Assembly (NCBI GenBank): GCA_030691735.1
Contig: JAUYDS010000117.1
Coordinates: forward strand, 17,280-81,279
Length of the DNA: 64,000 bases
Origin: Candidatus Aminicenantes bacterium
GTDB taxonomy: Bacteria > Acidobacteriota > Aminicenantia > Aminicenantales > UBA4085
Direction: 5' to 3'
Shown here piece by piece: positions 3,076 to 64,000 of the stretch. The notes under the pieces were generated by a model, which was not told the origin of the DNA, ran no database searches, and saw only the letters and a program-made list of their open reading frames with translations. The position numbers and the translations under genes are program-made. Within the stretch, counting starts at the first letter, position 1, and each line of letters begins with the position of its first letter.

Positions 3076-4767
3076 ATGGAAAAAAGACTGGTACTCGCGA
3101 TCGTCCTCTCCTTTCTGCTGTTGCTCGTCTGGCAACTCGTCCTCGTTAAAAAATCGCCGGAACTCCAAACCGCCGCCGAGCAAACGGTTCCGGTCCAAAC
3201 CGGCCAGGTCCAGCCGGTCCCGGAACAAAAAAAGGCCGATGTCGCGGCCCCTCAGCCGCCCGCCCAAAAAGCTGATAAGCCGTTGAATATAAAACAGATA
3301 TCTGCAAGCGGCGAAGACAAAATAACGTTAGACACCTCGCTTTATCAAGCCGTCTGGAGCAACAAGGGGGGGGTCTTGACAAGCTGGAAACTCCGCAAGC
3401 ATAAAAACGAAAAAAAAGAGTTTCTGGATCTCGTTCCCTTATCCGCGAAGGACGCCGGAGTTTATCCTTTTTCCCTCTATGATGATGCTCCCGACTCGGT
3501 CAAGGCCGGCCTTCAGGGGATCGTCTCGAGCGCGTATAACAGCGCCCTTTACAAAGTGACAGGTTCGAGCGGGGAAGTCAGGGACGGAGAAAAAGCCGAG
3601 ATCCGCTTCAATTACGCCGATGGAAAAGAGCTCGAGATCGAGAAGATCTTCACCTTCTATGGGGGAAGATATGATTTCGACATCGCCGTTGCGATCCGCA
3701 GGAACGGCCAGCCGGTCGAACCCCGGATTCTCTGGGGGCCCGGGATCGGCAATCCCTCCGAGAGCGAACTCAAACAGAGCTTCGGATCGGGCGGCGGCAC
3801 CACCGTCTTCGCCTCCAACAGCCTCTACCGGGTCGACGAGAAAAAATACAAGCCCGAACAGAGCGCTTTCAATTTCGTCACTTGGGCGGCCTACGACGAC
3901 AACTATTTCGCGGCCATGTTCCTTCCCGCGGCCGCCGGCGGAGGAACGGCCGCCTTTTTAAAGGAAGATGTCGAGAACAAGGCCTCCTATTTCTTTCTGT
4001 CGGCGGCCAATCCCGGCAAAGCCTTCGTCGGGCCGAAGGACTTCGATGCCTTGACGGCGTTCGGCCACGACGCCAAAAAGATCGTCCGCTTCGGTTTCTT
4101 CGGCTTCATCGCCGAGATCCTTTTCGTGACCTTGAAATTCATCCATAAATTCGTTCCGAACTGGGGATTCGCCATCATCATCTTGACCTTTATCATCAAG
4201 GTCCTCTTTTTCCCTCTGACCTACCACAGCACGAAATCCATGGCCAAGATGGCCGATCTCCAGCCGAAGATCAAAGCCCTCCGGGCCAAATATAAAAAGT
4301 CCAAAACCGATATCGCCCAGCGCCGCCAGATGAACGAAGAGATGATGAAGCTATACAAGGAGAACGGCGTCAATCCGGCCGGCGGCTGCTTGCCCATGAT
4401 TCTCCAGATCCCCGTCTTTTTCGGCCTCTTCAGTCTGTTGCGGGTCGCCATCGAACTGAGGCAGAGCCCCTGGATCCTCTGGATCAAAGACCTTTCGATC
4501 AAGGATCCCCTTTATATCACTCCTCTCCTCATGGGCGCGACGCAATTCATCAGCCAGAAAATGACCCCCACGACGGCCGATCCCGCCCAAGCCCGGATGA
4601 TGCTCATCATGCCTGTCGTCATGACCTTCTTTTTCATGAATTTCCAGAGCGGCCTGGTCATCTACTGGCTGACGTCCAATGTCCTTCAGATCGGACAACA
4701 ATACATCATGAACAGAATGATGCATAAAAAAAAGGTTGAATCCCATGGAAAACCAAGAAAAAAATGA
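3076..4767 (+). CDS. yidC: membrane protein insertase YidC/Oxa1 family
   Basis: Start placed at the internal ATG 3076 (MEKRLVLAIVLSFLLLLVWQ, signal-anchor) just after the yidD stop; the ORF-track start 2923 overlaps yidD. Periplasmic domain plus conserved C-terminal 5-TM core (..YKENGVNPAGGCLPMILQIPVFFGLF..). Confidence 0.85.
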   Translation: MEKRLVLAIVLSFLLLLVWQLVLVKKSPELQTAAEQTVPVQTGQVQPVPEQKKADVAAPQPPAQKADKPLNIKQISASGEDKITLDTSLYQAVWSNKGGVLTSWKLRKHKNEKKEFLDLVPLSAKDAGVYPFSLYDDAPDSVKAGLQGIVSSAYNSALYKVTGSSGEVRDGEKAEIRFNYADGKELEIEKIFTFYGGRYDFDIAVAIRRNGQPVEPRILWGPGIGNPSESELKQSFGSGGGTTVFASNSLYRVDEKKYKPEQSAFNFVTWAAYDDNYFAAMFLPAAAGGGTAAFLKEDVENKASYFFLSAANPGKAFVGPKDFDALTAFGHDAKKIVRFGFFGFIAEILFVTLKFIHKFVPNWGFAIIILTFIIKVLFFPLTYHSTKSMAKMADLQPKIKALRAKYKKSKTDIAQRRQMNEEMMKLYKENGVNPAGGCLPMILQIPVFFGLFSLLRVAIELRQSPWILWIKDLSIKDPLYITPLLMGATQFISQKMTPTTADPAQARMMLIMPVVMTFFFMNFQSGLVIYWLTSNVLQIGQQYIMNRMMHKKKVESHGKPRKK

Positions 4768-5386
4768 GTCCGGCGTCGAAGAACTCAAGGAATTCAAAGG
4801 CAAAAACTTAGAGGAGGCCATCGGTTACGCCGAGCACAAGCTGAAGATTCTCCGCTCGGAGTTCAACTACGAGATCGTTACCGAAAAGACCAAACTGTTC
4901 GGGATCAGCAAGGAGATCGTCATTCGTGTCTGGCCGAAGATCGAAGCCGAAGAGAACGCCGTTACCGATTTTCTCAAGAAGCTACTCCAGGTCTTTCCCC
5001 TCGACCTCGACTACCAGGTCAAGAAAAAGAACGGCTTCGTCTTCGTCGTCTTCGACGGCGAGGACAAGCAGATCCTCCTCTGGAAAGACGGGGCCCTTCT
5101 GCTGGCCTTGCAGCATGTCCTGAACAAGGTCTCCAATCAAAAAGTCCAGGTCGACTGTGAGTTTTTCCGGAAAAGAAAAGAGAAGAGACTCCGCGAATAC
5201 GCCCAGGATGTCGCCCGTCAGGTCAGTGATACCGGCCGGAACGAGATTCTGGACCTCATGAATCCCTACGAGCGACGGATTGTCCATATCGCCGTCAACC
5301 AGGTCCCGGGCCTAACCAGCGAAAGCCTGGGCGACGGTTTTCTGAAGCGGGTCAAGATCTTTCCCATCGGCAAGCAGGGCAAATAA
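4745..5386 (+). CDS. jag: Jag/KhpB family RNA-binding protein (Jag_N, KH, R3H domains)
   Basis: Follows yidC as in most bacteria; C-terminal R3H-like region (RRIVHIAVNQ..). Start could be 4736 or 4745. Confidence 0.7.
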   Translation: MENQEKNESGVEELKEFKGKNLEEAIGYAEHKLKILRSEFNYEIVTEKTKLFGISKEIVIRVWPKIEAEENAVTDFLKKLLQVFPLDLDYQVKKKNGFVFVVFDGEDKQILLWKDGALLLALQHVLNKVSNQKVQVDCEFFRKRKEKRLREYAQDVARQVSDTGRNEILDLMNPYERRIVHIAVNQVPGLTSESLGDGFLKRVKIFPIGKQGK

Positions 5387-5387
5387 A

Positions 5388-5556
5388 GGGCTCGCTCGAA
5401 GCGGGCAAACGCTCTCTTAGTCGCGGGTCCTGTCACCGATCAGCCCAGCCGGACTCGCTCATCACCCACCTTCGGGGGGTCCCATTCGCTTCGTCCGGCC
5501 GGGCGCCCGATCGGTGCCACCCGTAAATAGAGCGTTTGCCCGTTTCTTCGCTCGCG
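5388..5556. repeat. MITE-like inverted-repeat element 1 (about 169 bp) bounded by about 28-nt terminal inverted repeats
   Basis: Left end gggctcgctcgaagcgggcaaacgctctc (5388-5416) is the near reverse complement of the right end agagcgtttgcccgtttcttcgctcgcg (5529-5556). The interior folds into a long imperfect hairpin (caccgatc/gatcggtg, agccgg/ccggc). Confidence 0.5.
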
Positions 5557-5651
5557 TATTTCTTTAGTTATTCGGGATGGCCGATGCGGCGACAGGGTGG
5601 CCCCCGGCCCCCTGGGGAACCAGTCGCTTCCCGATCAATGCGTGGGATTAT

Positions 5652-5729
5652 GCTCGTTGGAAGGAAGGCAGGGAGCGAAGCGACCGTTGGAAGGAAACCC
5701 GCTCAAAGGGTTTCCTTCCAAGAGTGACC
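5652..5729. repeat. palindromic repeat family P, copy 1 (gctcgTTGGAAGGAAggcagggagcgaagcgaccgTTGGAAGGAAACCCgctcaaaGGGTTTCCTTCCAAgagtgacc)
   Basis: Near-identical copies at 6077-6154 and 22917-23006. Core is a 14-bp stem (ttggaaggaaaccc / gggtttccttccaa) with a 7-nt loop, plus an upstream direct repeat of ttggaagga. Confidence 0.65.
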
Positions 5730-5936
5730 CGTCGGTTCCCCCCATCGGCCTTGCCGATGGGGCCCCCCTCCGCTATGGGGTCCTTAGGGCCAACCCTGCC
5801 GTCGCGTCCTTTATTCTCGCACCGGAAAAACCGAAATGCAGCCGCGATATTTCTTGTGATCGCATCGGCTTCCTCCCCTCGCCCGGGATGAAAAAAATAG
5901 TTCATGATGATGGGGAAACGCATTGTTTTCGCCTTT

Positions 5937-6363
5937 GACGAGCGAAGAAGCGGGCGAACGCTCTTTTCACGGATTGAGCCGAACGACAAGATCGGGAGAC
6001 GGCCGAAGCGACCATGGAGGGTTTAGCCTTTCCGAGCCGTCCTTCGAGGGAACTCCGAACAATGCGACGAACAAATGCTCCTTGGAAGGTTAGCAGGGAG
6101 CGCAGCGACCGTTGGAAGGAAACCCGTTCAAAGGGTTTCCTTCCAAGAGTGACCAGCCGGCCCGGAAGAGGCCGGCCGGCGAAGCATGTTTGAGCTTCCC
6201 GGCGCACTCCCGTAATGTCGGAAGCCGGGAAGCGAGTTCTGAGCCGCCGAGAAGAACGGCGAGGAAACGGCGTGAAAAACCCGAGTCGGGAGCGAAGCCG
6301 TTTTCCGATCTTGTCTGTATGCCCCGCCGACCAGAAAAGCGTTCGCCCACTTCGAGCGAGCCC
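5937..6363. repeat. MITE-like inverted-repeat element 2 (about 427 bp) with terminal inverted repeats related to element 1; carries palindromic repeat P copy 2 internally
   Basis: Left end gacgagcgaagaagcgggcgaacgctcttttc (5937-5968) versus right end agaaaagcgttcgcccacttcgagcgagccc (6334-6363). The ends are cross-related to the element-1 ends (RC of the element-2 right end approximates the element-1 left end). Confidence 0.45.
6077..6154. repeat. palindromic repeat family P, copy 2
   Basis: gctccttggaaggttagcagggagcgcagcgaccgttggaaggaaacccgttcaaagggtttccttccaagagtgacc; differs from copy 1 at only a few positions. Confidence 0.65.
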
Positions 6364-6402
6364 CTTTACTATTCGCTTCGTCTAAACTAAAATCCCATTC
6401 AA

Positions 6403-7782
6403 ATGCTCGATCAAACGCTCGAGGACACGATCATCGCCGTCTCGACGCCGCCCGGATATGGGGGGATCGGGATCGTCCGGTTGAGCGGCCGGGACGCCCT
6501 CAAGATAGCTAAAGCCTTTTTTCGGCCGAAGAAGGCAACTTCCAAGATCCCTCCGAGGCGGGCGGTTTTAGGAAACCTCGTGAATCTCGAAACGGAAGAG
6601 GTCTTCGAAGAGGCCTATCTTCTTTATTTTCAAGCGCCTCATTCCTATACTCGCGAGGACGTGGCCGAGATCAGCTGCCACGGCAGCCCCACGGTCATGG
6701 AAGAAGCCGTTCGTCTTGGAATCAGGGCCGGAGCGAGGCACGCGCGAGCCGGAGAATTCACCTTGCGGGCCTATTTGAGAGGCCGGCTTGACATCATTCA
6801 GGCCGAAGCGGTCAACGACCTCATTCGAGCCGGCACGATCGAAACGGCCCACTTGGCGTTCAGCCAGCTGGACGGAAAGCTTTCGAAGAAGATCGAAGGA
6901 TTTCGGGCGGGAGTCATCGACATCCTCTCCCAGATCGAAGCGGTTATCGAGTTTCCGGAAGACCGGCTGCCCGTCACGCCTGGGAAAATGGCCATAAACC
7001 TCGAGAAAATGATCGTCCTGATGGACGATCTTGTTTCGAGCTACGAAGGAGGCAGAGCGCTCATCGAAGGCGTCACCCTGGCCATCACGGGGAGGACGAA
7101 TGTCGGGAAATCCACCCTGTTCAACGCCATTTTAGAGGACGAGCGAGCGATCGTCACCCCCTATCCCGGAACGACGCGGGACTACTTGAAGGAAAAGATC
7201 AAGATCAAGGACGCCTATTTCAACCTGGTCGATATGGCCGGCCTTGGAAAGGCAGGTTCGTCCGTCGAACGGGAAGGCATGAGAAGGGGGGAAAAAATAG
7301 CCTCATCGGCGGAAGGGCTTCTCATTTTGCTGGATGCCTCTCGTCCGGAGGATCGAGAGGACCTCGCCCTTCTCGAGGAATTCCGGAACAAAAAAGCCCT
7401 CATCCTGTTCAACAAGATCGATCTTGGCCTGAAAATGGATATCGCCAAGATCAAAGAGCGCTTCGGACACCTTTCTTTCCTGGAAATCTCCGCCCTGAGA
7501 GGAACGAATCTCAACCGGTTGAGGAAGAAGATTTATGAGATCTTCGCCGCGAAGATGCAGAACCGCGAAAACGTCATCTTCCATCTAAGACAGAAATTGC
7601 TGCTTGAGGATGTTCTCAGACATCTGAAAAAGGGGCGTGAACTGCTTTTAAAAGGCCATTCCGAGGAGATTTACGCTGATGAGATCCGGAAAACGCTTCC
7701 TTTCCTCAGCCAATTGACGGGAGAGATCAAAGCGGACGATGTCATCGAAAGGATCTTCAGCCGCTTCTGCGTGGGAAAATGA
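6403..7782 (+). CDS. mnmE: tRNA modification GTPase MnmE
   Basis: 459 aa; N-terminal THF-binding domain (TIIAVSTPPG.GGIGIVRLSG), G-domain (GRTNVGKSTLFNAIL), C-terminal ..CVGK motif. Confidence 0.9.
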   Translation: MLDQTLEDTIIAVSTPPGYGGIGIVRLSGRDALKIAKAFFRPKKATSKIPPRRAVLGNLVNLETEEVFEEAYLLYFQAPHSYTREDVAEISCHGSPTVMEEAVRLGIRAGARHARAGEFTLRAYLRGRLDIIQAEAVNDLIRAGTIETAHLAFSQLDGKLSKKIEGFRAGVIDILSQIEAVIEFPEDRLPVTPGKMAINLEKMIVLMDDLVSSYEGGRALIEGVTLAITGRTNVGKSTLFNAILEDERAIVTPYPGTTRDYLKEKIKIKDAYFNLVDMAGLGKAGSSVEREGMRRGEKIASSAEGLLILLDASRPEDREDLALLEEFRNKKALILFNKIDLGLKMDIAKIKERFGHLSFLEISALRGTNLNRLRKKIYEIFAAKMQNRENVIFHLRQKLLLEDVLRHLKKGRELLLKGHSEEIYADEIRKTLPFLSQLTGEIKADDVIERIFSRFCVGK

Positions 7783-7783
7783 A

Positions 7784-9664
7784 ATGAAAACGACAGCCGC
7801 CGATGCTTACGATATTGTCGTAGTCGGAGCCGGCCATGCCGGTTGCGAGGCGGCCGCCGCAGCCTGCGCTATGGGCCTGTCGACCTGCCTGGTCACGATC
7901 CATCTTGAGACCATCGCTCAAATGTCCTGCAATCCGGCCATCGGCGGACTGGCCAAAGGCCATCTGGTCCGGGAAATCGACGCCATCGGCGGGCTCATGG
8001 GTCGGTTGGCTGATGAGACGGGGATCCAGTTCCGCTTGTTGAACCGGAGCCGGGGGGGTGCGGTCCAGGCGCCCCGCGCTCAATGCGACAAGGCCCTTTA
8101 TCGGCTGACAATGAAGAAATGGCTCGAGAACATTCCAAATATGACGGTTTTCCAAGGGATCGTGACCGATCTTCTCGTCGAGGACGGAAAGGCGAAAGGT
8201 ATCGCCACATTGGACGGCCACATGATCCGGGGCAAAGCGATCCTTCTAACTCCCGGCACGTTCTTGAACGGACTGATCCATATCGGGCTCAAGAGCTATC
8301 CGGCCGGGAGGGCCAACGAGCCCGCCGCCCCAGAGCTGGGAGAGTGCCTGAAAAGGCTCGGTTTGAAAACCTTGCGCCTAAAAACAGGCACGCCGATGAG
8401 GCTGGACAAGCATACCATCGACTGGTCGCGGTTCGAACCTCAGCCGGGCGACGAAATCCCCGTCCCTTTTTCGTTCAGAACAAGAAAAAGGCTCGAGAAT
8501 AAAGTCGTTTGTTATGCCGGATATACGAACGAAAAAACACATGAGGTCATCCGAAAGAACCTCGATAAATCTCCTCTCTTCAGCGGTAAGATTATAGGCG
8601 TCGGGACCCGCTACTGTCCATCGATCGAGGATAAAGTAGTGAAATTCCCTCATCATTCCCGGCACCACTTCTTTCTCGAGCCGGAAGGCCTTGAAACGGC
8701 GGAGGTTTATGTCAACGGCGTATCTTCCAGCCTTCCCTATGAAACACAGAAGAGCATCCTCGGGACCATCCCGGGGCTTGACCAGGCAAAGATCCTGAGG
8801 CCCGCCTATGGTATCGAGTATGACGCCATCTCCCCTGTCCAGCTTCGGCCTACGCTGGAAACGAGACTCATCGACGATCTCTATTTAGCCGGACAGATCA
8901 ATGGGACCTCGGGTTATGAAGAAGCCGCGGCCCAGGGGCTCATGGCCGGCATCAATGCCGCCTTGAAAATAAAAAAGAAAGCCCCATTTATTCTTCGCCG
9001 GGATGAAGCCTATATTGGAGTCCTCATCGATGACTTGATTTCCAAGGGCGTGGAGGAGCCTTACCGCCTTTTTACCTCGAGGGCCGAATATCGCCTCATG
9101 CTGAGGATCGACAACGCCGACGTCCGCTTGACCGGATACGGTCATGGTTTCGGACTGATCGGAGATGAGGAATTATGTGTTTTCCATGAGAAACAGGAAA
9201 GGGTGAGAAACGTCATCTATTTCCTGGAGAACAAGAAGATCACCCTGGCCAACAAGGAAAAAATCAGGCTGAAGGACTTCCTAAAAAAACCTGAAATCCA
9301 TTTCGAGAATATGCTAGAATACGGAAAGATTCCGGAGGCCCTAACCGATGAAGAGATCAGACACGTCGAGGCCGAAGTCAAATATGAAGGATATCTGAAA
9401 AAACAGGAAAAAGAGGTCGCCAAGATCTTGAAGATCGACGGCCTTAAAATTCCCGAGAAACTGGATCTTAAGAAAATTCATGGCCTGACCAGGGAAGCCG
9501 TGGAAAAGATGGAACAACATAGACCGAGGACGATCCGTGACATGAAAAAGATCCCGGGGCTCACCCCTTCCGACGTATTTTCCGTCTATGTCCACCTGAA
9601 GGCGCGGAAAAAGAGAAGGGTCACCGGCGATAATGTTCCACGTGGAACAATCGGCAATGGCTAA
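7784..9664 (+). CDS. mnmG: tRNA uridine 5-carboxymethylaminomethyl modification enzyme MnmG (GidA)
   Basis: Start at ATG 7784 ([27 protein letters not shown]-binding GxGxxG) two nt after the mnmE stop; the upstream part of the ORF-track call overlaps mnmE. Classic GidA body. Confidence 0.9.
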
Positions 9665-22069: not shown

Positions 22070-23197
22070 ATGACCCCGCGGCAGAGGATCGAGAGCCTGC
22101 TCGCCGGACGCCCCGCCGACCGTGTCCCATTCTGCCCGGCGGTCTATGAACATAAAGCCGCCCTCATCGGGACGACCCCGTCGCTCCTGAGCCGTGACCC
22201 AGGGCTTTTCGAGCGGGCCCTCATCCGGGAGGCCGAGCTTTACCGGCCGGACATGCTTGTCGTCGGCTGCGACGTCTACAACGTCGAGGCCGAGGCCGTC
22301 GGCGGCAAGGTCAGGTTCTATGATTCGAGCGACGTCCCTTCGATCGCGGAGCGGCCGGTCAAGGTCGGCGATGATATTTCCCGTCTGCGTTTCCCCGATC
22401 CCGAAAAGGACGGCCGGATGCCGGTCTGCCTGGAGGCCGGCGGGAGAATTCAGAAGCGATTCGGCCGGGAGATGTTCATCCGCGGCGCCCTCAGCGCGCC
22501 GTTCTCGATCGCCTGCGAGCTCGCCGGCGCCGAAGAGGTGCTGATGGCGCTCCTGGACGACCCCGCCTGGGTGTCGAAGCTCCTCTCTTTCTCGGCGGAG
22601 ATCGCCAAAACCTACGGCCGGGCGTACGTCGAGCGGGGGCTGGGGATCATCCTTTTTGATTCCCATGCCGCCCCGCCCCTGGTCTCTCCCTCGTTATATC
22701 GGAGCCTCATTCTGCCTCCGACGGCCGATGTCGTCGGCTATTTCCGTGAAGCTCTCGGCCTCCCTCTCGTTCCTTATATCATCGGCGGGGACACGTCCGG
22801 CATCCTCGAGGCGATCCTCGAGACGGGAACGAACAACATCCTCTGCGATTTCCGCGCCGACCTCTCGTCGTTCGTCGATCGCCTCGAGAACAGTCCGGAT
22901 CAATTCGTGGGCCAAAGCTCCTTGGAAGGAAGGCAGGGACGGCGGGCTCTTCCCGCCGGACCGTTGGAAGGAAACCCGACCAAAGGGTTTCCTTCCAAGA
23001 GTGACCGGCCGGTCCTGCTGCGGGCGAACCTCGATCCGCGCTTTCTGCTCAAGGCCTCGATCCCGGACATCCAGGCTAAAACGAGCGAGGTCCTGGCTAT
23101 CGGCCGCCGTCATCCCGGGTTCATCCTGGGGACCGGCATTCTGCCCTTCGATCTGCCTCCTGAAAAGGTCATGGCCGTCCGGGCCGTCCTCGAATAA
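22070..23197 (+). CDS. uroporphyrinogen-decarboxylase (URO-D) family protein (MtaA/CmuA-like methyltransferase fold) carrying an in-frame palindromic-repeat insertion
   Basis: 375 aa; URO-D-like N-terminus (RVPFCPAVYEHKAAL..). Residues about 283-313 (SSLEGRQGRRALPAGPLEGNPTKGFPSKSDRP) are encoded by repeat P copy 3. Confidence 0.6.
   Translation: MTPRQRIESLLAGRPADRVPFCPAVYEHKAALIGTTPSLLSRDPGLFERALIREAELYRPDMLVVGCDVYNVEAEAVGGKVRFYDSSDVPSIAERPVKVGDDISRLRFPDPEKDGRMPVCLEAGGRIQKRFGREMFIRGALSAPFSIACELAGAEEVLMALLDDPAWVSKLLSFSAEIAKTYGRAYVERGLGIILFDSHAAPPLVSPSLYRSLILPPTADVVGYFREALGLPLVPYIIGGDTSGILEAILETGTNNILCDFRADLSSFVDRLENSPDQFVGQSSLEGRQGRRALPAGPLEGNPTKGFPSKSDRPVLLRANLDPRFLLKASIPDIQAKTSEVLAIGRRHPGFILGTGILPFDLPPEKVMAVRAVLE
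22917..23006. repeat. palindromic repeat family P, copy 3 (inside the URO-D-like CDS, in frame)
   Basis: gctccttggaaggaaggcagggacggcgggctcttcccgccggaccgttggaaggaaacccgaccaaagggtttccttccaagagtgacc; has an extra internal mini-hairpin (ggcgggctcttcccgcc) relative to copies 1 and 2. Confidence 0.65.
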
Positions 23198-24117: not shown

Positions 24118-24361
24118 TGTTCATAAGCGTAAAATTCTGCTAAGATGGATCAAGGGACGAGCCTTCGCGGCGGAAGTGGACCCCCGAGCAAAGCTCGGGG
24201 CACTCACCCGCGATGTAAATACGCGGCTGAGTACGGCGGAAGCGGATCCCCAGACAAAGCCTGCCCACATTCGCTTCGCGAATGAGGACTGCAAAGCCTG
24301 GGGCCCTTGCCGCCGCCCCGGCCGCCGTGGGGCGGAACCGATCCGTGGACGGGAGGGACAA

Positions 24362-28080: not shown

Positions 28081-28250
28081 CCCCCCCCACCCCCCTTTAG
28101 CAAAGGGGGGGCTTGCTTTCCCTCCTTTCCTAAAGGGTAGGCGTGCTTCCCCCCCTTTCCTAAAGGGGGGGCTTGCTTTCCCCCCTTTAGCAAAGGGGGG
28201 GCTCGCTTTCCCCCCTTTACTAAAGGGGGGAGAAGGGGGGATTAGCCCCG
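28081..28250. repeat. tandem array of five about 30-nt GC-clamped hairpin units (C6-7 TTT NNN AAA G6-7 plus cttgctttc linker), preceded by a poly-C tract
   Basis: Units at about 28090, 28121, 28150, 28181, 28211: cccccctttagcaaaggggggg cttgctttc / cctcctttcctaaagggtagg cgtgcttc / ccccccctttcctaaaggggggg cttgctttc / ccccctttagcaaaggggggg ctcgctttc / ccccctttactaaagggggg agaagggggg. No spacers, so not CRISPR. Confidence 0.7.
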
Positions 28251-30297: not shown

Positions 30298-30395
30298 GGG
30301 GTCGCGTCTACACTTTCCACTTTCTCCTGCCGATCAAGCTGGATCCGAATTCATCTGGAAGAAAGTGGAAAGTGTAGACGCGACCCCGGCCTTTT
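30298..30395 (+). terminator. long perfect hairpin (28-bp stem, 34-nt loop) followed by TTTT; possible terminator for the DUF502 operon
   Basis: ggggtcgcgtctacactttccactttct (30298-30325) pairs perfectly with agaaagtggaaagtgtagacgcgacccc (30360-30387), then ggccTTTTctc. Located between convergent genes. Confidence 0.4.
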
Positions 30396-42279: not shown

Positions 42280-43791
42280 ATGACGAAGCGGCCGCGGCGG
42301 CTCGAAAAGATCCTGATCGCGAACAGGGGAGAGATCGCCGTCCGCGTCGAGCGGACCTGCCGCGAGCTCGGGCGGACGACCGTGGCCGTGTTCTCCGACC
42401 CCGACCGCCACGCTCTGCACGTGAGATACGCGGACGAGGCCTATCCCCTGGGCGGATCGACGCCCGCGGAAACGTATCTTGACCAAGCCAAGATCTTCGA
42501 CATCGCCCGCCGCTCCGGCGCCGACGCCGTCCATCCCGGTTATGGATTTCTCAGCGAGAACCCCTCTTTCGCCGCGGCCTGCCGCGAGCGCGGCCTGGTC
42601 TTCATCGGCCCCTCGGCCGAATCGATCGAGCTCATGGGCGAGAAGACCCGGGCGCGCGAGCGGATGAGTCGGGCCGGCGTCCCGATCGTCCCCGGGACTC
42701 CGCCGCTGGCGGCGGTCCAGGAAGCCCTGAGCGAGGCCCGGCGCCTCAGCTTCCCCGTCCTGATCAAAGCCGCGGCCGGCGGCGGGGGCAAGGGGATGCG
42801 CCGCGTGGATCGCCCCGACGATTTCGGCCCGGCCTTCGAAGCCTGCCGGCGTGAAGCCTTGTCCGCGTTCGGCGACGACCGCGTCTATCTCGAAAAATAT
42901 CTCGAGGAACCTCACCACGTGGAGTTCCAGATCCTGGCCGATGCGCAGGGCCGGACGATCCATCTCTTCGAGCGGGAGTGCTCCATCCAGAGACGGCACC
43001 AAAAGATCATCGAGGAGACGCCGTCGCCCCTGATGACCAAGGACCTCCGGGCCCGAATGGGCCAAGCGGCCGTCAGGGCGGCCGAAGCCTGCGGCTACAC
43101 CAACGCCGGCACGATCGAATTTCTCGTCGACGCCGGCCGCCGCTTCTATTTTTTGGAGATGAACACCCGTCTCCAGGTCGAGCATCCCATCACCGAGATG
43201 GTCACCGGCGTCGACCTCGTCGAGCGCCAGATCCGCATCGCCGAAGGCGAACCCCTGGAAGACCGCCATCTCTCCCAGCGTGGGACGGCCATGGAATGCC
43301 GGATATACGCTGAGGACCCCTGGAATCACTTCCTTCCTTCGCCGGGCTTGATCCGGAAACTGTCTCCGCCGGGAGGTCCGGGCGTCCGGGACGACACGGG
43401 CGTCTACGCCGGATTTACCGTTCCCATGGAGTACGATCCGTTGTTGGCCAAGCTGGTCGTCTGGGGCGAAAACCGGCAACAGACCCTGGCCCGGATGAGC
43501 CGGGCTCTCGAGGAATATCGATTGATCGGGATACGAACCAATATCCCTTATCTCCGGAGGATCGTCCGCCATCCGGAATTCGCCAGGGGCGCCTATGATA
43601 CGCATTTCCTGATGAAGCACCAGGACGAGCTTTTAAAGTTCGACCGGAGCGATCATGACCGTATTGCCCTGGCGGCGGCCGCCGTCCTCGCCTGGCGGGG
43701 CGAAGAGAAGAGCACGGCCGGCCCCGCGGCCGGAAATTCCGCTGCCTCGGCCTGGAAAATGGCGGGCCGCCCGGGAGTCTCCGACTCGTGA
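42280..43791 (+). CDS. biotin carboxylase (acyl-CoA carboxylase alpha, no fused BCCP)
   Basis: 503 aa; MTKRPRRLEKILIANRGEIAVRV N-terminus, ATP-grasp and BC C-terminal domain. Confidence 0.85.
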   Translation: MTKRPRRLEKILIANRGEIAVRVERTCRELGRTTVAVFSDPDRHALHVRYADEAYPLGGSTPAETYLDQAKIFDIARRSGADAVHPGYGFLSENPSFAAACRERGLVFIGPSAESIELMGEKTRARERMSRAGVPIVPGTPPLAAVQEALSEARRLSFPVLIKAAAGGGGKGMRRVDRPDDFGPAFEACRREALSAFGDDRVYLEKYLEEPHHVEFQILADAQGRTIHLFERECSIQRRHQKIIEETPSPLMTKDLRARMGQAAVRAAEACGYTNAGTIEFLVDAGRRFYFLEMNTRLQVEHPITEMVTGVDLVERQIRIAEGEPLEDRHLSQRGTAMECRIYAEDPWNHFLPSPGLIRKLSPPGGPGVRDDTGVYAGFTVPMEYDPLLAKLVVWGENRQQTLARMSRALEEYRLIGIRTNIPYLRRIVRHPEFARGAYDTHFLMKHQDELLKFDRSDHDRIALAAAAVLAWRGEEKSTAGPAAGNSAASAWKMAGRPGVSDS

Positions 43792-46573: not shown

Positions 46574-48097
46574 TCAGTCCGCTCCTCCGATCCTCCACCG
46601 GCCCAGCGTCTGCCAAGGCCCGGCCGTTTCTTCCTTCGCCCGCAGGCCGCCCTTCGGGCGGGTCCGCCGGCTCATCTCATCGATGGCGGCGGCGGCCAAG
46701 GCCAGAGGAAGCGTTTCCCCCGCCCTTGCCGCTCCCGTCCAGCCGTCAAAATATTTGGGGATGAAGGCCGTGTTCGTCCGTCCCGCCCGGAATTCCGGAT
46801 GGCGGATGACCTCCTTGAGGAAGTCGATGGTCGTATGGATGCCGAGGACGGCATAGCCGTCGAGCGCGGCGGCCATGCGCCGGCAGGCCAGGTCCCGGTT
46901 CTCGGCCCAGACGACGAGCTTGGCCAGGATCGGGTCATAATAGATTGGGACATCCCATCCGCTGTAGATGCCGCCGTCCAGACGGACGCCGGGCCCTTTC
47001 GGCTCCCGGAGAAAAAGGATCCGGCCCGGCGAGGGGAGGAAATTGGCGGTCGGGTCCTCGGCGTAGATCCGGCATTCGATGGCGTGCCCGCGCTGCCGGA
47101 GATCGTTCTGTTTCAAGGTCAAGGGTTCGCCGGCGGCGATCAGGATTTGCTGGCGGACCAGATCCACCCCGGTCACGAGCTCGGTCACGGGATGCTCGAC
47201 CTGGAGGCGGGCATTCACCTCGAGGAAATAGAAGTTGCGATTTTTGTCCAGGAGGAATTCGACCGTGCCAGCATTGTTGTAACCCGCCGCCCGCATGGCC
47301 TTCACGGCGGTCTCGCCCATTTTCAACCTAAGCGCGTCGTCCAAGGCGGGGGAGGGCGTCTCCTCGACGATCTTCTGGTGCCGCCGCTGGATCGAACATT
47401 CCCGTTCGAAGAGATGGACGATCCGGCCGGCGTTGTCGGCCAGGACCTGGAACTCGACGTGGCGGGGCTCTTCGATGTATCGTTCGAGATAGACGGATTC
47501 GTCCCCGAAGGCGGACTTGGCTTCGCGCCGCCCCGCTTCAAGAGCAGGACCCAGGTCTTTTTCTTCGGTGACAATGCGCATCCCTTTGCCGCCGCCCCCG
47601 GCCGAGGCCTTGACGATGACCGGGAACCCGAGAGCCCGGGCCGCTTTTACATATTCCCCGGCGTCGGCGGGAACGGACTTCATCCCGGGGATGATCGGGA
47701 TGCCGGCCTTCTCCATCGTCTGCCGGGCGCGGACCTTGTCGCCGACGAGCTCGAGCGCGTCGGACCTGGGGCCGATGAAAACGATCCCCTCTTTCTCCAA
47801 TCGCCGGGCGAAATCGGCGTTCTCAGCCAGGAAGCCGTATCCGGGGTGGACGGCTTCCGCGCCGCTGTCGCGAACGGCCCGGACGATCCGGTCCATGTCG
47901 AGATAGCTTTCGACCGCGGGGGCCGGCCCGATGGCGACGGCTTCGTCGGCCAGGGCGACGTGGAGACTGGCCCGGTCGGCTTCGGAGTAGACGGCGACGG
48001 GGGAGATGCCCATTTCGCGGCAGGCCCGAATGACCCGGACGGCAATCTCGCCCCGGTTGGCGATCAATATTTTTTTGAACATCTTCATTCCGCCCAT
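46574..48097 (-). CDS. biotin carboxylase (methylcrotonyl-CoA carboxylase alpha-like, no fused BCCP)
   Basis: 507 aa; (MGGMK)MFKKILIANRGEIAVRVIRA; second BC paralog in the window. Start may be the internal ATG at 48082. The antisense ORF 46571..48424 is rejected. Confidence 0.85.
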   Translation of the reverse strand: MGGMKMFKKILIANRGEIAVRVIRACREMGISPVAVYSEADRASLHVALADEAVAIGPAPAVESYLDMDRIVRAVRDSGAEAVHPGYGFLAENADFARRLEKEGIVFIGPRSDALELVGDKVRARQTMEKAGIPIIPGMKSVPADAGEYVKAARALGFPVIVKASAGGGGKGMRIVTEEKDLGPALEAGRREAKSAFGDESVYLERYIEEPRHVEFQVLADNAGRIVHLFERECSIQRRHQKIVEETPSPALDDALRLKMGETAVKAMRAAGYNNAGTVEFLLDKNRNFYFLEVNARLQVEHPVTELVTGVDLVRQQILIAAGEPLTLKQNDLRQRGHAIECRIYAEDPTANFLPSPGRILFLREPKGPGVRLDGGIYSGWDVPIYYDPILAKLVVWAENRDLACRRMAAALDGYAVLGIHTTIDFLKEVIRHPEFRAGRTNTAFIPKYFDGWTGAARAGETLPLALAAAAIDEMSRRTRPKGGLRAKEETAGPWQTLGRWRIGGAD

Positions 48098-61580: not shown

Positions 61581-61781
61581 GGTCATCCTGGGCGGATTGG
61601 AAGATCTCATTCACACTTCCCGAGGTTGAATGAGATCCTTCACTTCGTTCAGGACGACCCAAAGGGTCGGATCCCTCGCTGCGCTCGTCAATTCAACGGC
61701 GGCCGGGGCCCCGGGCATTGCCCGGGGGTCCACTTCCGCCGTACTCGCCCGTGGGATACAAGCCACGGGCGAGTGGCGAGC

Positions 61782-63784: not shown

Positions 63785-63980
63785 GCAAAAAAAAACGCCC
63801 TGCCTTCCCCACGAAGGCGGGTATCGAGGCTTAAAGCAGGTCTCCTGACTCTCGGATCGTCCTCCTCCCGGGCCTTCCTATCCTCAGCGGAGGAAAGTGG
63901 CGTCGTCCGGGATTCGTCCCCGATCACAGTAGCGGGGGCTGTGTCCGCATTTCACGGACTTCCCTGGCATTTAAGCCTGA
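63785..63980 (-). ncRNA. cobalamin (B12) riboswitch with terminator-type expression platform
   Basis: On the minus strand: P1 ggcttaaa...tttaagcc; conserved core GGGAAGUCCGUGAAAUGCGGACACAGCCCCCGCUACUGUGA; B12 box GAGAGUCAGGAGACCUGC; then hairpin cccgccttcgtggggaaggcaggg plus U9 (plus-strand A-run 63787-63795) directly upstream of the btuB-like RBS. Confidence 0.75.
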
Positions 63981-64000
63981 AGAAATATTTATAGACCAAT

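Follow-up and report, generated by a model that had tools for sequence, protein, structure and literature searches.

Nested hairpin-forming repeats make up the spacer between jag and mnmE in a Candidatus Aminicenantes genome

In Escherichia coli, bacterial interspersed mosaic elements (BIMEs) are linear arrays of REPs (repetitive extragenic palindromes) with short motifs between them. Each REP is a short palindromic unit of 20–40 nt with an unpaired GTAG or CGTC tag, and now and then a copy is found within a gene, repair genes among them (PMC3733652). Compensatory changes have been reported in the hairpins formed by REP doublets (REPINs; PMC3116915). [quoted passage not shown] Here we analyse the 1016-nt non-coding spacer between jag and mnmE of a Candidatus Aminicenantes bacterium, using a stretch of 64,000 nt of contig JAUYDS010000117.1 (referred to below as the window), and compare it with these systems. 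We think it likely that non-autonomous repeat DNA elements that form hairpins, are specific to an Aminicenantes lineage and are mobile or at least turn over fast have piled up in this spacer.

At least five multi-copy modules, which we call E shell, C, M, X and P, make up the spacer (window 5387–6402) as a nested mosaic; each is a long imperfect hairpin (Table 1). The E shell, with arms of ~40–47 nt, is present twice. E1, beside jag, has its own core, while E2, on the mnmE side, encloses C together with a copy of P, and a model of E1 matches the minus strand at both ends of E2. C is bounded by a terminal inverted repeat (TIR) of 19–20 nt (89%). Between E1 and E2 lie M, interrupted by another copy of P, and the linker X. 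The segment CCGGAAAAACCGAAATGCAG of X forms the right arm of a shell that encloses M; loci L017 and L068 still have the left arm of this shell, which E1 has replaced in the window (L001, L003 ... L072 are the numbered related loci, or contigs, that were compared with the window). M has no TIRs of the MITE type, and two of its unpaired segments, the loop AGTCCCGTC and the segment CTCCGCTATG, are invariant. P also has no TIR; its 5′ end is variable and its 3′ end is conserved as CCAAGAGTG(A/T)C, with a 14-bp subterminal hairpin before it.

Table 1. Positions, in window coordinates, of the repeat modules, the flanking genes and the promoter-like sequence.
Feature	Position	Strand	Remarks
Left arm of outermost hairpin, GGGCTCGCTCG	5388..5398	+	pairs with 6350–6363; window inverted pair and L060 spacer
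Right arm of outermost hairpin, CTTCGAGCGAGCCC	6350..6363	+	window inverted pair and L060 spacer
E1, 169-nt imperfect hairpin	5388..5556	+	arm A 5388–5430, arm B 5508–5556, own core
M, left part	5583..5625	+	M has four helices and is 122 nt long; split here by P1
P1, 102-nt P element	5626..5727	+	in loop of M hairpin 3, GGGGAACCAGTC^CCGTCGGTTCCCC; empty M sites, L068 empty, L017 filled
M, right part	5728..5808	+	M copies elsewhere; covariation
X, linker module, itself a repeat	5809..5938	+	17 loci carry X
E2, shell family of E1 reversed	5939..6363	-	arm B 5939–5985, arm A 6320–6366; encloses C and P2
C, left part	5985..6050	+	C is a ~225-nt hairpin element; inverted repeat 5985–6003/6297–6315
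P2, 103-nt P element in C	6051..6153	+	boundary uncertain by 1–2 nt; P-free C copies elsewhere
C, right part	6154..6315	+	P-free C copies elsewhere
P3, 114-nt P variant with extra 12-nt hairpin	22892..23005	+	in frame in URO-D family gene 22070–23197
jag, upstream flank	4745..5386	+	Pfam R3H and Jag_N; stop codon TAA at 5384–5386
mnmE, downstream flank	6403..7782	+	Pfam TrmE_N, MnmE_helical, MMR_HSR1
Sigma-70-like promoter match TTTACT-17-TAAAAT	6365..6393	+	consensus match only; directly upstream of mnmE, outside repeat block

An initial annotation of the window had read the spacer as ~1 kb of non-coding DNA that splits jag from mnmE, made up of two separate MITE-like elements with cross-related ends, two copies of a 78-nt palindrome and a recurring motif. 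Much of this description stands. Both flanking genes are identified by Pfam, and none of the seven open reading frames (ORFs) of the spacer has a Pfam match at E ≤ 0.1; no ORF with a recognisable domain spans it. The TIR core GAAGCGGGCRAACGCTCT occurs four times (5398+, 5529-, 5947+ and 6336-) and nowhere else in the 64 kb, against a chance expectation of 0.21. The ends of the two elements are indeed related, as inverted pairs link 5508–5554 with 5939–5985 (47 nt, 81%) and 5385–5423 with 6328–6366 (39 nt, 82%), the latter pairing the outer ends of the block at 5388 and 6363. The motif GAGCGAAG is found 12 times in the window, where 5.3 copies are expected, and four times in the 1-kb spacer, where shell arm B accounts for two copies and the others belong to P and C. 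E1 folds as the single long imperfect hairpin that had been proposed (−89.2 kcal mol−1, z = −6.35), and the z-scores are −8.1 for element 2 and −9.75 for the whole block. Three points needed revision. The positions of the two elements are right; they are one shell family in opposite orientations rather than distinct elements, and the stretch between them is also repeat-built, from M and X. The two copies of P are real (5650–5735 and 6075–6160, 91% identical over 86 nt), with a unit of ~102 nt rather than 78 nt, and a third copy was matched at 22894–23012. The spacer is composed of interlocking repeats, far beyond chance.

Related copies were collected by scanning a genome collection with the P core and metagenomes with the TIR pattern; the latter scan gave 53 loci, ~14 of which are chance single matches. 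The P core was present in two other metagenome-assembled genomes (MAGs), one labelled Aminicenantes and the other ‘Eubacteriales’; neither the P core nor the M core was found in viral contigs. In ~0.4 Mb of related contigs, nhmmer returned 41 hits to M at 31 loci, 39 to C at 26, 29 to the E arms or core at 23, 24 to P at 12 and 17 to X at 17. Seven full-length copies of E1 are present at unrelated loci, E2-type shells with C at more than 15 loci, and P′/P doublets in L003, L005 and L006. Only L017, L033 and L060–L072 are orthologous to the window, and all other loci are unrelated intergenic sites. Every module thus recurs at many unrelated loci. The neighbouring genes are tandem, convergent or divergent, the elements occur in both orientations, and M lies either way round with respect to C. 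At L009, between two convergent genes at an unrelated site, the whole E1-M-X-E2 composite is present without either P. The tail of L066 and the first 430 nt of L069 are repeats that also occur elsewhere, indicating that there are more than five families. We found no description of these Aminicenantes repeats in the literature.

The content of the site between jag and mnmE differs markedly between relatives, with orthologous spacers of 65, 93, 248, 278, 688, 745, ~790 and 1016 nt. In L068 (Jag 92% identical; 688 nt) jag is followed by a shell arm, M, X, E2 with C, and mnmE, with neither P nor E1. L017 (Jag 95%) carries P in M by the same insertion as the window, and again E1 is absent. A different repeat stands directly after jag in L066 (Jag 100%), L069 and L070 (Jag 89%; 745 nt) have other modules plus E2 with C, and in L033 E2 contains C with M nested in it, M being reversed. 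L062 and L063 encode identical Jag proteins and differ by a precise 185-nt insert of five hairpins, belonging to the P family, at CTTTAC^TAAT (L062 10703–10887); this insert is found at the identical position in the more distant L064, which comes from a 4.28-Mb genome. In L060 and L061 (Jag 90%) the spacer is only 65 nt and consists of the TAA, a 25-nt hairpin GGGCTCGCTCG-CTTT-GAGCGAGCCC, and then TCTTTACTATT... and the mnmE promoter-like region. This hairpin is formed wholly by the two pieces that correspond to window 5388–5398 and 6350–6363, and no bare shell hairpin was found besides this orthologous site. Since nearer and more distant relatives both carry the block, parsimony favours reading the L060 mini-hairpin as what a deletion left behind, with the tips of the shell retained, over a site that no element had ever entered. 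The hairpin after jag appears to be the recurrent target.

Empty counterparts are also available for the nested copies. At least 17 distinct copies of M have no P, and all of these read GGGGAACCAGTC^CCGTCGGTTCCCC at the position where P1 stands in the window; C without P is found in L005, in seven aligned copies and in the orthologous L068. P occurs in the loop of M hairpin 3 in both orientations and at two adjacent positions. In other nestings C encloses P or M and the E shell encloses C or M alone, and in L005 C lies in a different shell, GGTTCTCTTCCATTTCGTATGGG. A copy of M in L026 (10030–10183) has an extra 31-nt hairpin in the loop of hairpin 4, P3 has an extra 12-nt hairpin nested in it, and the whole block of the window lies within the post-jag hairpin. 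The initial annotation had offered a nested MITE insertion hotspot as one reading of the region, and a hotspot of nested insertions of small multi-copy elements is well supported by these comparisons.

We next consider whether the elements are MITEs in the strict sense, that is, deletion derivatives of an insertion sequence (IS) with a DDE transposase, moved by cut-and-paste and bearing TIRs and target-site duplications. Like the Correia, Chunjie, Nezha and ERIC elements, they are small, non-coding and multi-copy and can form long hairpins, and the E shell and C carry TIRs of ~20–45 nt. However, P and M are without such TIRs, and no target-site duplication was seen at any filled/empty comparison: there is no direct repeat in the flanks of the seven E1 copies and none for P in M, C or the URO-D family gene (three filled/empty pairs of P) or for the 185-nt insert of L062, with at most 1–2 nt of ambiguity or microhomology. 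No parent was found either at the loci compared. Clustering of 879 flanking ORFs gave only ABC ATPases and syntenic genes, with no repeated transposase ORF, and among the 53 TIR-seeded loci there was no autonomous IS with the same TIRs. The spacing of TIR pairs was always 130–460 nt, except for one of 6.2 kb in L019 that was judged to be a chance match with four mismatches. The pattern, free of duplications and scars and directed at loops, does not fit DDE cut-and-paste, and we regard classical MITEs as quite improbable here.

The same features can be compared with palindrome-associated transposable elements (PATEs), non-autonomous derivatives of IS200/IS605, and with the peel-and-paste mechanism on single strands; these elements may resemble PATEs in the absence of duplication, subterminal hairpins in place of simple TIRs (in P), scar-free empty sites and, for P, a position abutting 5′-C(C)G. 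Among the 21 distinct right-end matches listed, three of which are not P, 16 have C(C)G at the beginning of the 3′ flank, against a background of 0.137, and these bases were already in the target in the three cases with an empty site. We take this as a weak target preference only, because many of the copies share ancestry and because the 185-nt relative uses CTTTAC^TAAT. Points of difference from PATEs are that neither tnpA nor tnpB turned up as a partner, that P varies at its left end and that its target motif is a loose one. A scan of ~0.46 Mb for the HUH...Y motif of HUH/Y1 transposases yielded one spurious ORF and no such gene, which would be unsurprising if the gene is single-copy per genome.

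P is also found within genes. P3 adds 38 codons in frame, and hence 38 residues, to a protein of the URO-D family. Homologues of 339 aa that are up to 74% identical do not have these residues, and only P0002, which is 87% identical, does; the in-frame copy shows insertion at the DNA level. In L019 (6833–6930) P is read through in another frame, close to the C-terminus of an Mfd/TRCF homologue; solved Mfd structures align with this protein only up to the insert, and this copy is probably an in-frame insert in mfd, judging from the alignment. The P-encoded peptide was also considered as a widespread protein module and this was rejected, as an exhaustive phmmer search of 1.84 billion representative proteins gave no genuine further host and one spurious repetitive protein. 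At other loci, ORFs that overlap the elements are merely 5′ run-through of real genes. In-frame copies of P are sporadic. The in-frame copy in the URO-D gene, with the probable one in mfd, resembles the situation of RPEs. In contrast to RPEs, however, there is one clear and one probable in-gene case, no relationship exists in sequence, and the copies are mostly intergenic.

Compensatory changes in the stems of M, E1 and C show that structure is conserved among copies. M has seven pairs with double changes, against 2.1 ± 1.1 in shuffled alignments (0 of 500) and 0–3 in slid controls, and compensatory pairs number 10 of 49 in E1 and 14 of 75 in C. The hairpin structure is constrained and, as far as can be told, this holds at the level of DNA. 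A strand bias in G.U versus A.C pairs was considered and rejected, since it showed up whichever orientation was folded and stemmed from the separate folding of the two. When only pairs predicted both ways round are counted, the ratio of G.U to A.C columns is 7:5 in C, 4:8 in E1 and 3:3 in M, and there is no asymmetry.

These observations bear on an alternative that widens the family of structured small RNAs suggested in the initial annotation: the modules, above all M, E1 and C, would be structured-RNA genes or cis-elements (small RNAs or structures of untranslated regions), and their spread would reflect functional loci in multiple copies, not selfish DNA. The strong and significant folding, the significant covariation, the invariant unpaired segments of M and the 85–95% identity across species-level genomes speak for such RNAs. 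Nevertheless, the lack of asymmetry, the mixed orientations and the mutual interruption of the elements leave the RNA-gene reading without support. There is no excess of G.U over A.C on orientation-neutral pairs, the modules lie either way round to their neighbours in divergent, convergent and tandem contexts, with M either way round to C, and they interrupt one another at a locus that varies between strains with identical Jag. P, moreover, lies in frame inside the URO-D gene and probably mfd, and no promoter or terminator signature marks discrete units. In the whole window at the gathering score the only match to Rfam was a cobalamin riboswitch elsewhere (RF00174, 94 bits; 63818–63995, minus strand), and at permissive E ≤ 1–10 the spacer and the uninterrupted composite in L009 gave sub-threshold noise only. 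A scan for tRNA and tmRNA found none. We consider it unlikely that the modules are RNA genes, and no specific support was obtained for a family of structured small RNAs.

The gene order around the spacer is CNNM(-), carD(-), rnpA, yidD, yidC, jag, spacer, mnmE, mnmG, parA, parB, bactofilin. The 213-aa Jag is identical to P0121 from an Aminicenantes MAG at NCBI; P0001, from the same NCBI contig of 107,750 bp, is likewise identical to a protein of the window. This position within the rnpA-yidC-jag-mnmE-mnmG-parAB block could suggest a functional chromosomal site such as an origin, a parS cluster or a regulatory region, and the origin of the sequence from a MAG contig could suggest an artefact of binning and assembly. 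However, the spacer contains no DnaA box and no parS, and the only good parS match, the near-consensus palindrome TGTTCCACGTGGAACA, is at 9634–9649, at the start of parA. The relative with 90% identical Jag has the spacer of only 65 nt, and the same modules are found at dozens of unrelated loci. With regard to assembly, independent assemblies reproduce the M::P junctions (L017), the collinear order jag-M-X-E2-mnmE (L068) and the mnmE-proximal 129 nt (L001). The Logan contigs L072 and L001 (SRR13727536), whose genes are identical to those of the window, break off right at the jag stop and pick up again at window 6274; contig breaks at the edges of the block are what repeats would be expected to cause. 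A functional site or an artefact therefore appears very improbable. The block does lie next to replication and partition genes, as had been pointed out; this proximity appears incidental. The promoter-like sequence upstream of mnmE is also present in the spacers of L033, L060 and L068, and mnmE probably keeps its own promoter, outside the block. An effect of the block on expression of jag or mnmE, through termination or mRNA stabilisation, is speculative.

The block is multi-copy, nested, dispersed, strain-polymorphic, free of target duplications, hairpin-forming and non-coding, and these properties favour mobile DNA palindromes of the REP, REPIN, BIME or PATE type over small-RNA genes or classical MITEs. 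With REPs and REPINs, which are mobilised by REP-associated tyrosine transposases (RAYTs), the elements have in common that they are extragenic, high-copy, hairpin-forming and non-coding, make no target duplication and keep their hairpins through compensatory changes. As in REPINs there are inverted doublets, such as P′/P around ATGAATTCAT in the CAZIDN MAG and E1/E2 here. Unlike REPs, the units are of 100–230 nt with several helices, many unrelated families occur per genome, and nesting is systematic where REPs are tandem or clustered. There is no GTAG head, and CGTC is confined to AGTCCCGTC, the loop of M, and to a position 5′ of the inner stem of E; unlike in the REPIN-RAYT system, no RAYT was found in the HUH/Y1 scan. 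As is generally known of BIMEs, and of the RIME and NIME mosaics, intergenic blocks combine a limited set of repeat motifs, and their composition varies by locus and strain. In contrast to BIMEs, the modules here sit in each other's hairpin loops, and the sequences are unrelated. In the way it works the block is closest to REP/REPIN and BIME-type repeat DNA, with some traits of MITEs (TIRs), of RPEs (in-frame copies) and possibly of PATEs (subterminal hairpins, no duplication). It has neither the duplication that defines MITEs, nor the short tagged palindromes that define REPs, nor the recurrent coding inserts that define RPEs.

How might such a structure arise? On the interpretation as mobile or rapidly turning-over repeats, a new copy would land at the loop, or apex, of a hairpin already present and so produce a Russian-doll structure. 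In the window the order from the outside in is post-jag hairpin, E shell, C and P and, separately, X shell, M and P. Elements are present, missing or swapped at one site in close strains, and composites are copied to unrelated sites. It is possible, and we suggest it tentatively, that the elements are mobilised in trans, via single-stranded DNA, by a tyrosine transposase of the HUH/Y1 type (a RAYT, or similar to the TnpA of IS200/IS605), as REPIN-RAYT or IS200/IS605 derivatives are. We infer this from insertion into hairpin loops, from hairpins that are subterminal, and from sites that show neither duplications when filled nor scars when empty. Loops are single-stranded when hairpins extrude and would suit single-strand insertion, and selection may add to the nesting, as insertion in a loop leaves the host hairpin intact. 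Long palindromes are lost by replication slippage, and long nested ones probably would be too, leaving mini-hairpins as in L060.

A more doubtful extension of this scheme is that the modules form a self-nesting class, in which elements transposed as single strands prefer the exposed loop of another hairpin, which may be a terminator or one of the same kind. Kilobase-scale palindromes would then grow by repeated insertion, excision or slippage would reduce them to mini-hairpins that could be reused as landing pads, and the partner would be a new or divergent recombinase of the HUH type, or of another type, in Aminicenantes.

Several points weigh against our interpretation of the spacer as a pile-up of mobile or rapidly turning-over repeats. 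No transposase was found near the elements in ~0.46 Mb, so the mechanism of mobilisation is unproven, and the features that point to an HUH/Y1 enzyme are negative and indirect. The invariant unpaired segments of M would also suit a functional RNA or a protein-binding site. For the copy number per genome the figure is a crude extrapolation, of about one further cluster per 36 kb beyond the seeded site. Some ‘empty’ states, L060 among them, may have arisen by deletion and not because the site had always been free, and E1 beside jag and P2 in C are known from this MAG contig alone.

Other repeats were observed in the window. A further hairpin family, ...ACTCGCCCGTGG-loop-CCACGGGCGAGT... with CGGCGGAAGTGGA flanks, is present at 24168–24261 and 61708–61773 and also in L035 (twice), L036, L038, L039 and L042, from which it follows that the lineage has additional repeat families. 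A tandem array at 28090–28230 consists of 4.7 copies of the 30-nt unit CCCCCCTTTACTAAAGGGGGGGCTTGCTTT, each of which is a small hairpin, and a perfect inverted repeat of 28 nt lies at 30298–30325 and 30360–30387 with a spacing of 34 nt. Long inverted repeats at 42598–43257 and 47120–47782 (up to 165 nt, 74–84% complementary, ~4–5 kb apart) look like divergently oriented paralogous coding regions.

No new cellular system is revealed by this locus, and its relevance is to specialists in bacterial repeat DNA and to those who assemble Aminicenantes genomes. In practical terms, the repeats break short-read Aminicenantes assemblies into pieces and can lead gene callers to report spurious ORFs. The nested hairpins provide a data set on the choice of targets by REP/REPIN-like DNA and on the tolerance and loss of long palindromes. 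The filled and empty orthologous sites, the strains with identical Jag that differ by one element and the series of spacers from 65 to 1016 nt together form an unusually clear natural record of the dynamics of such elements. The in-frame copy in the URO-D family gene shows that these repeats can also remodel proteins. Overall, the spacer belongs to a rich array of hairpin repeat families, previously undescribed, from a phylum that is widespread but uncultured.

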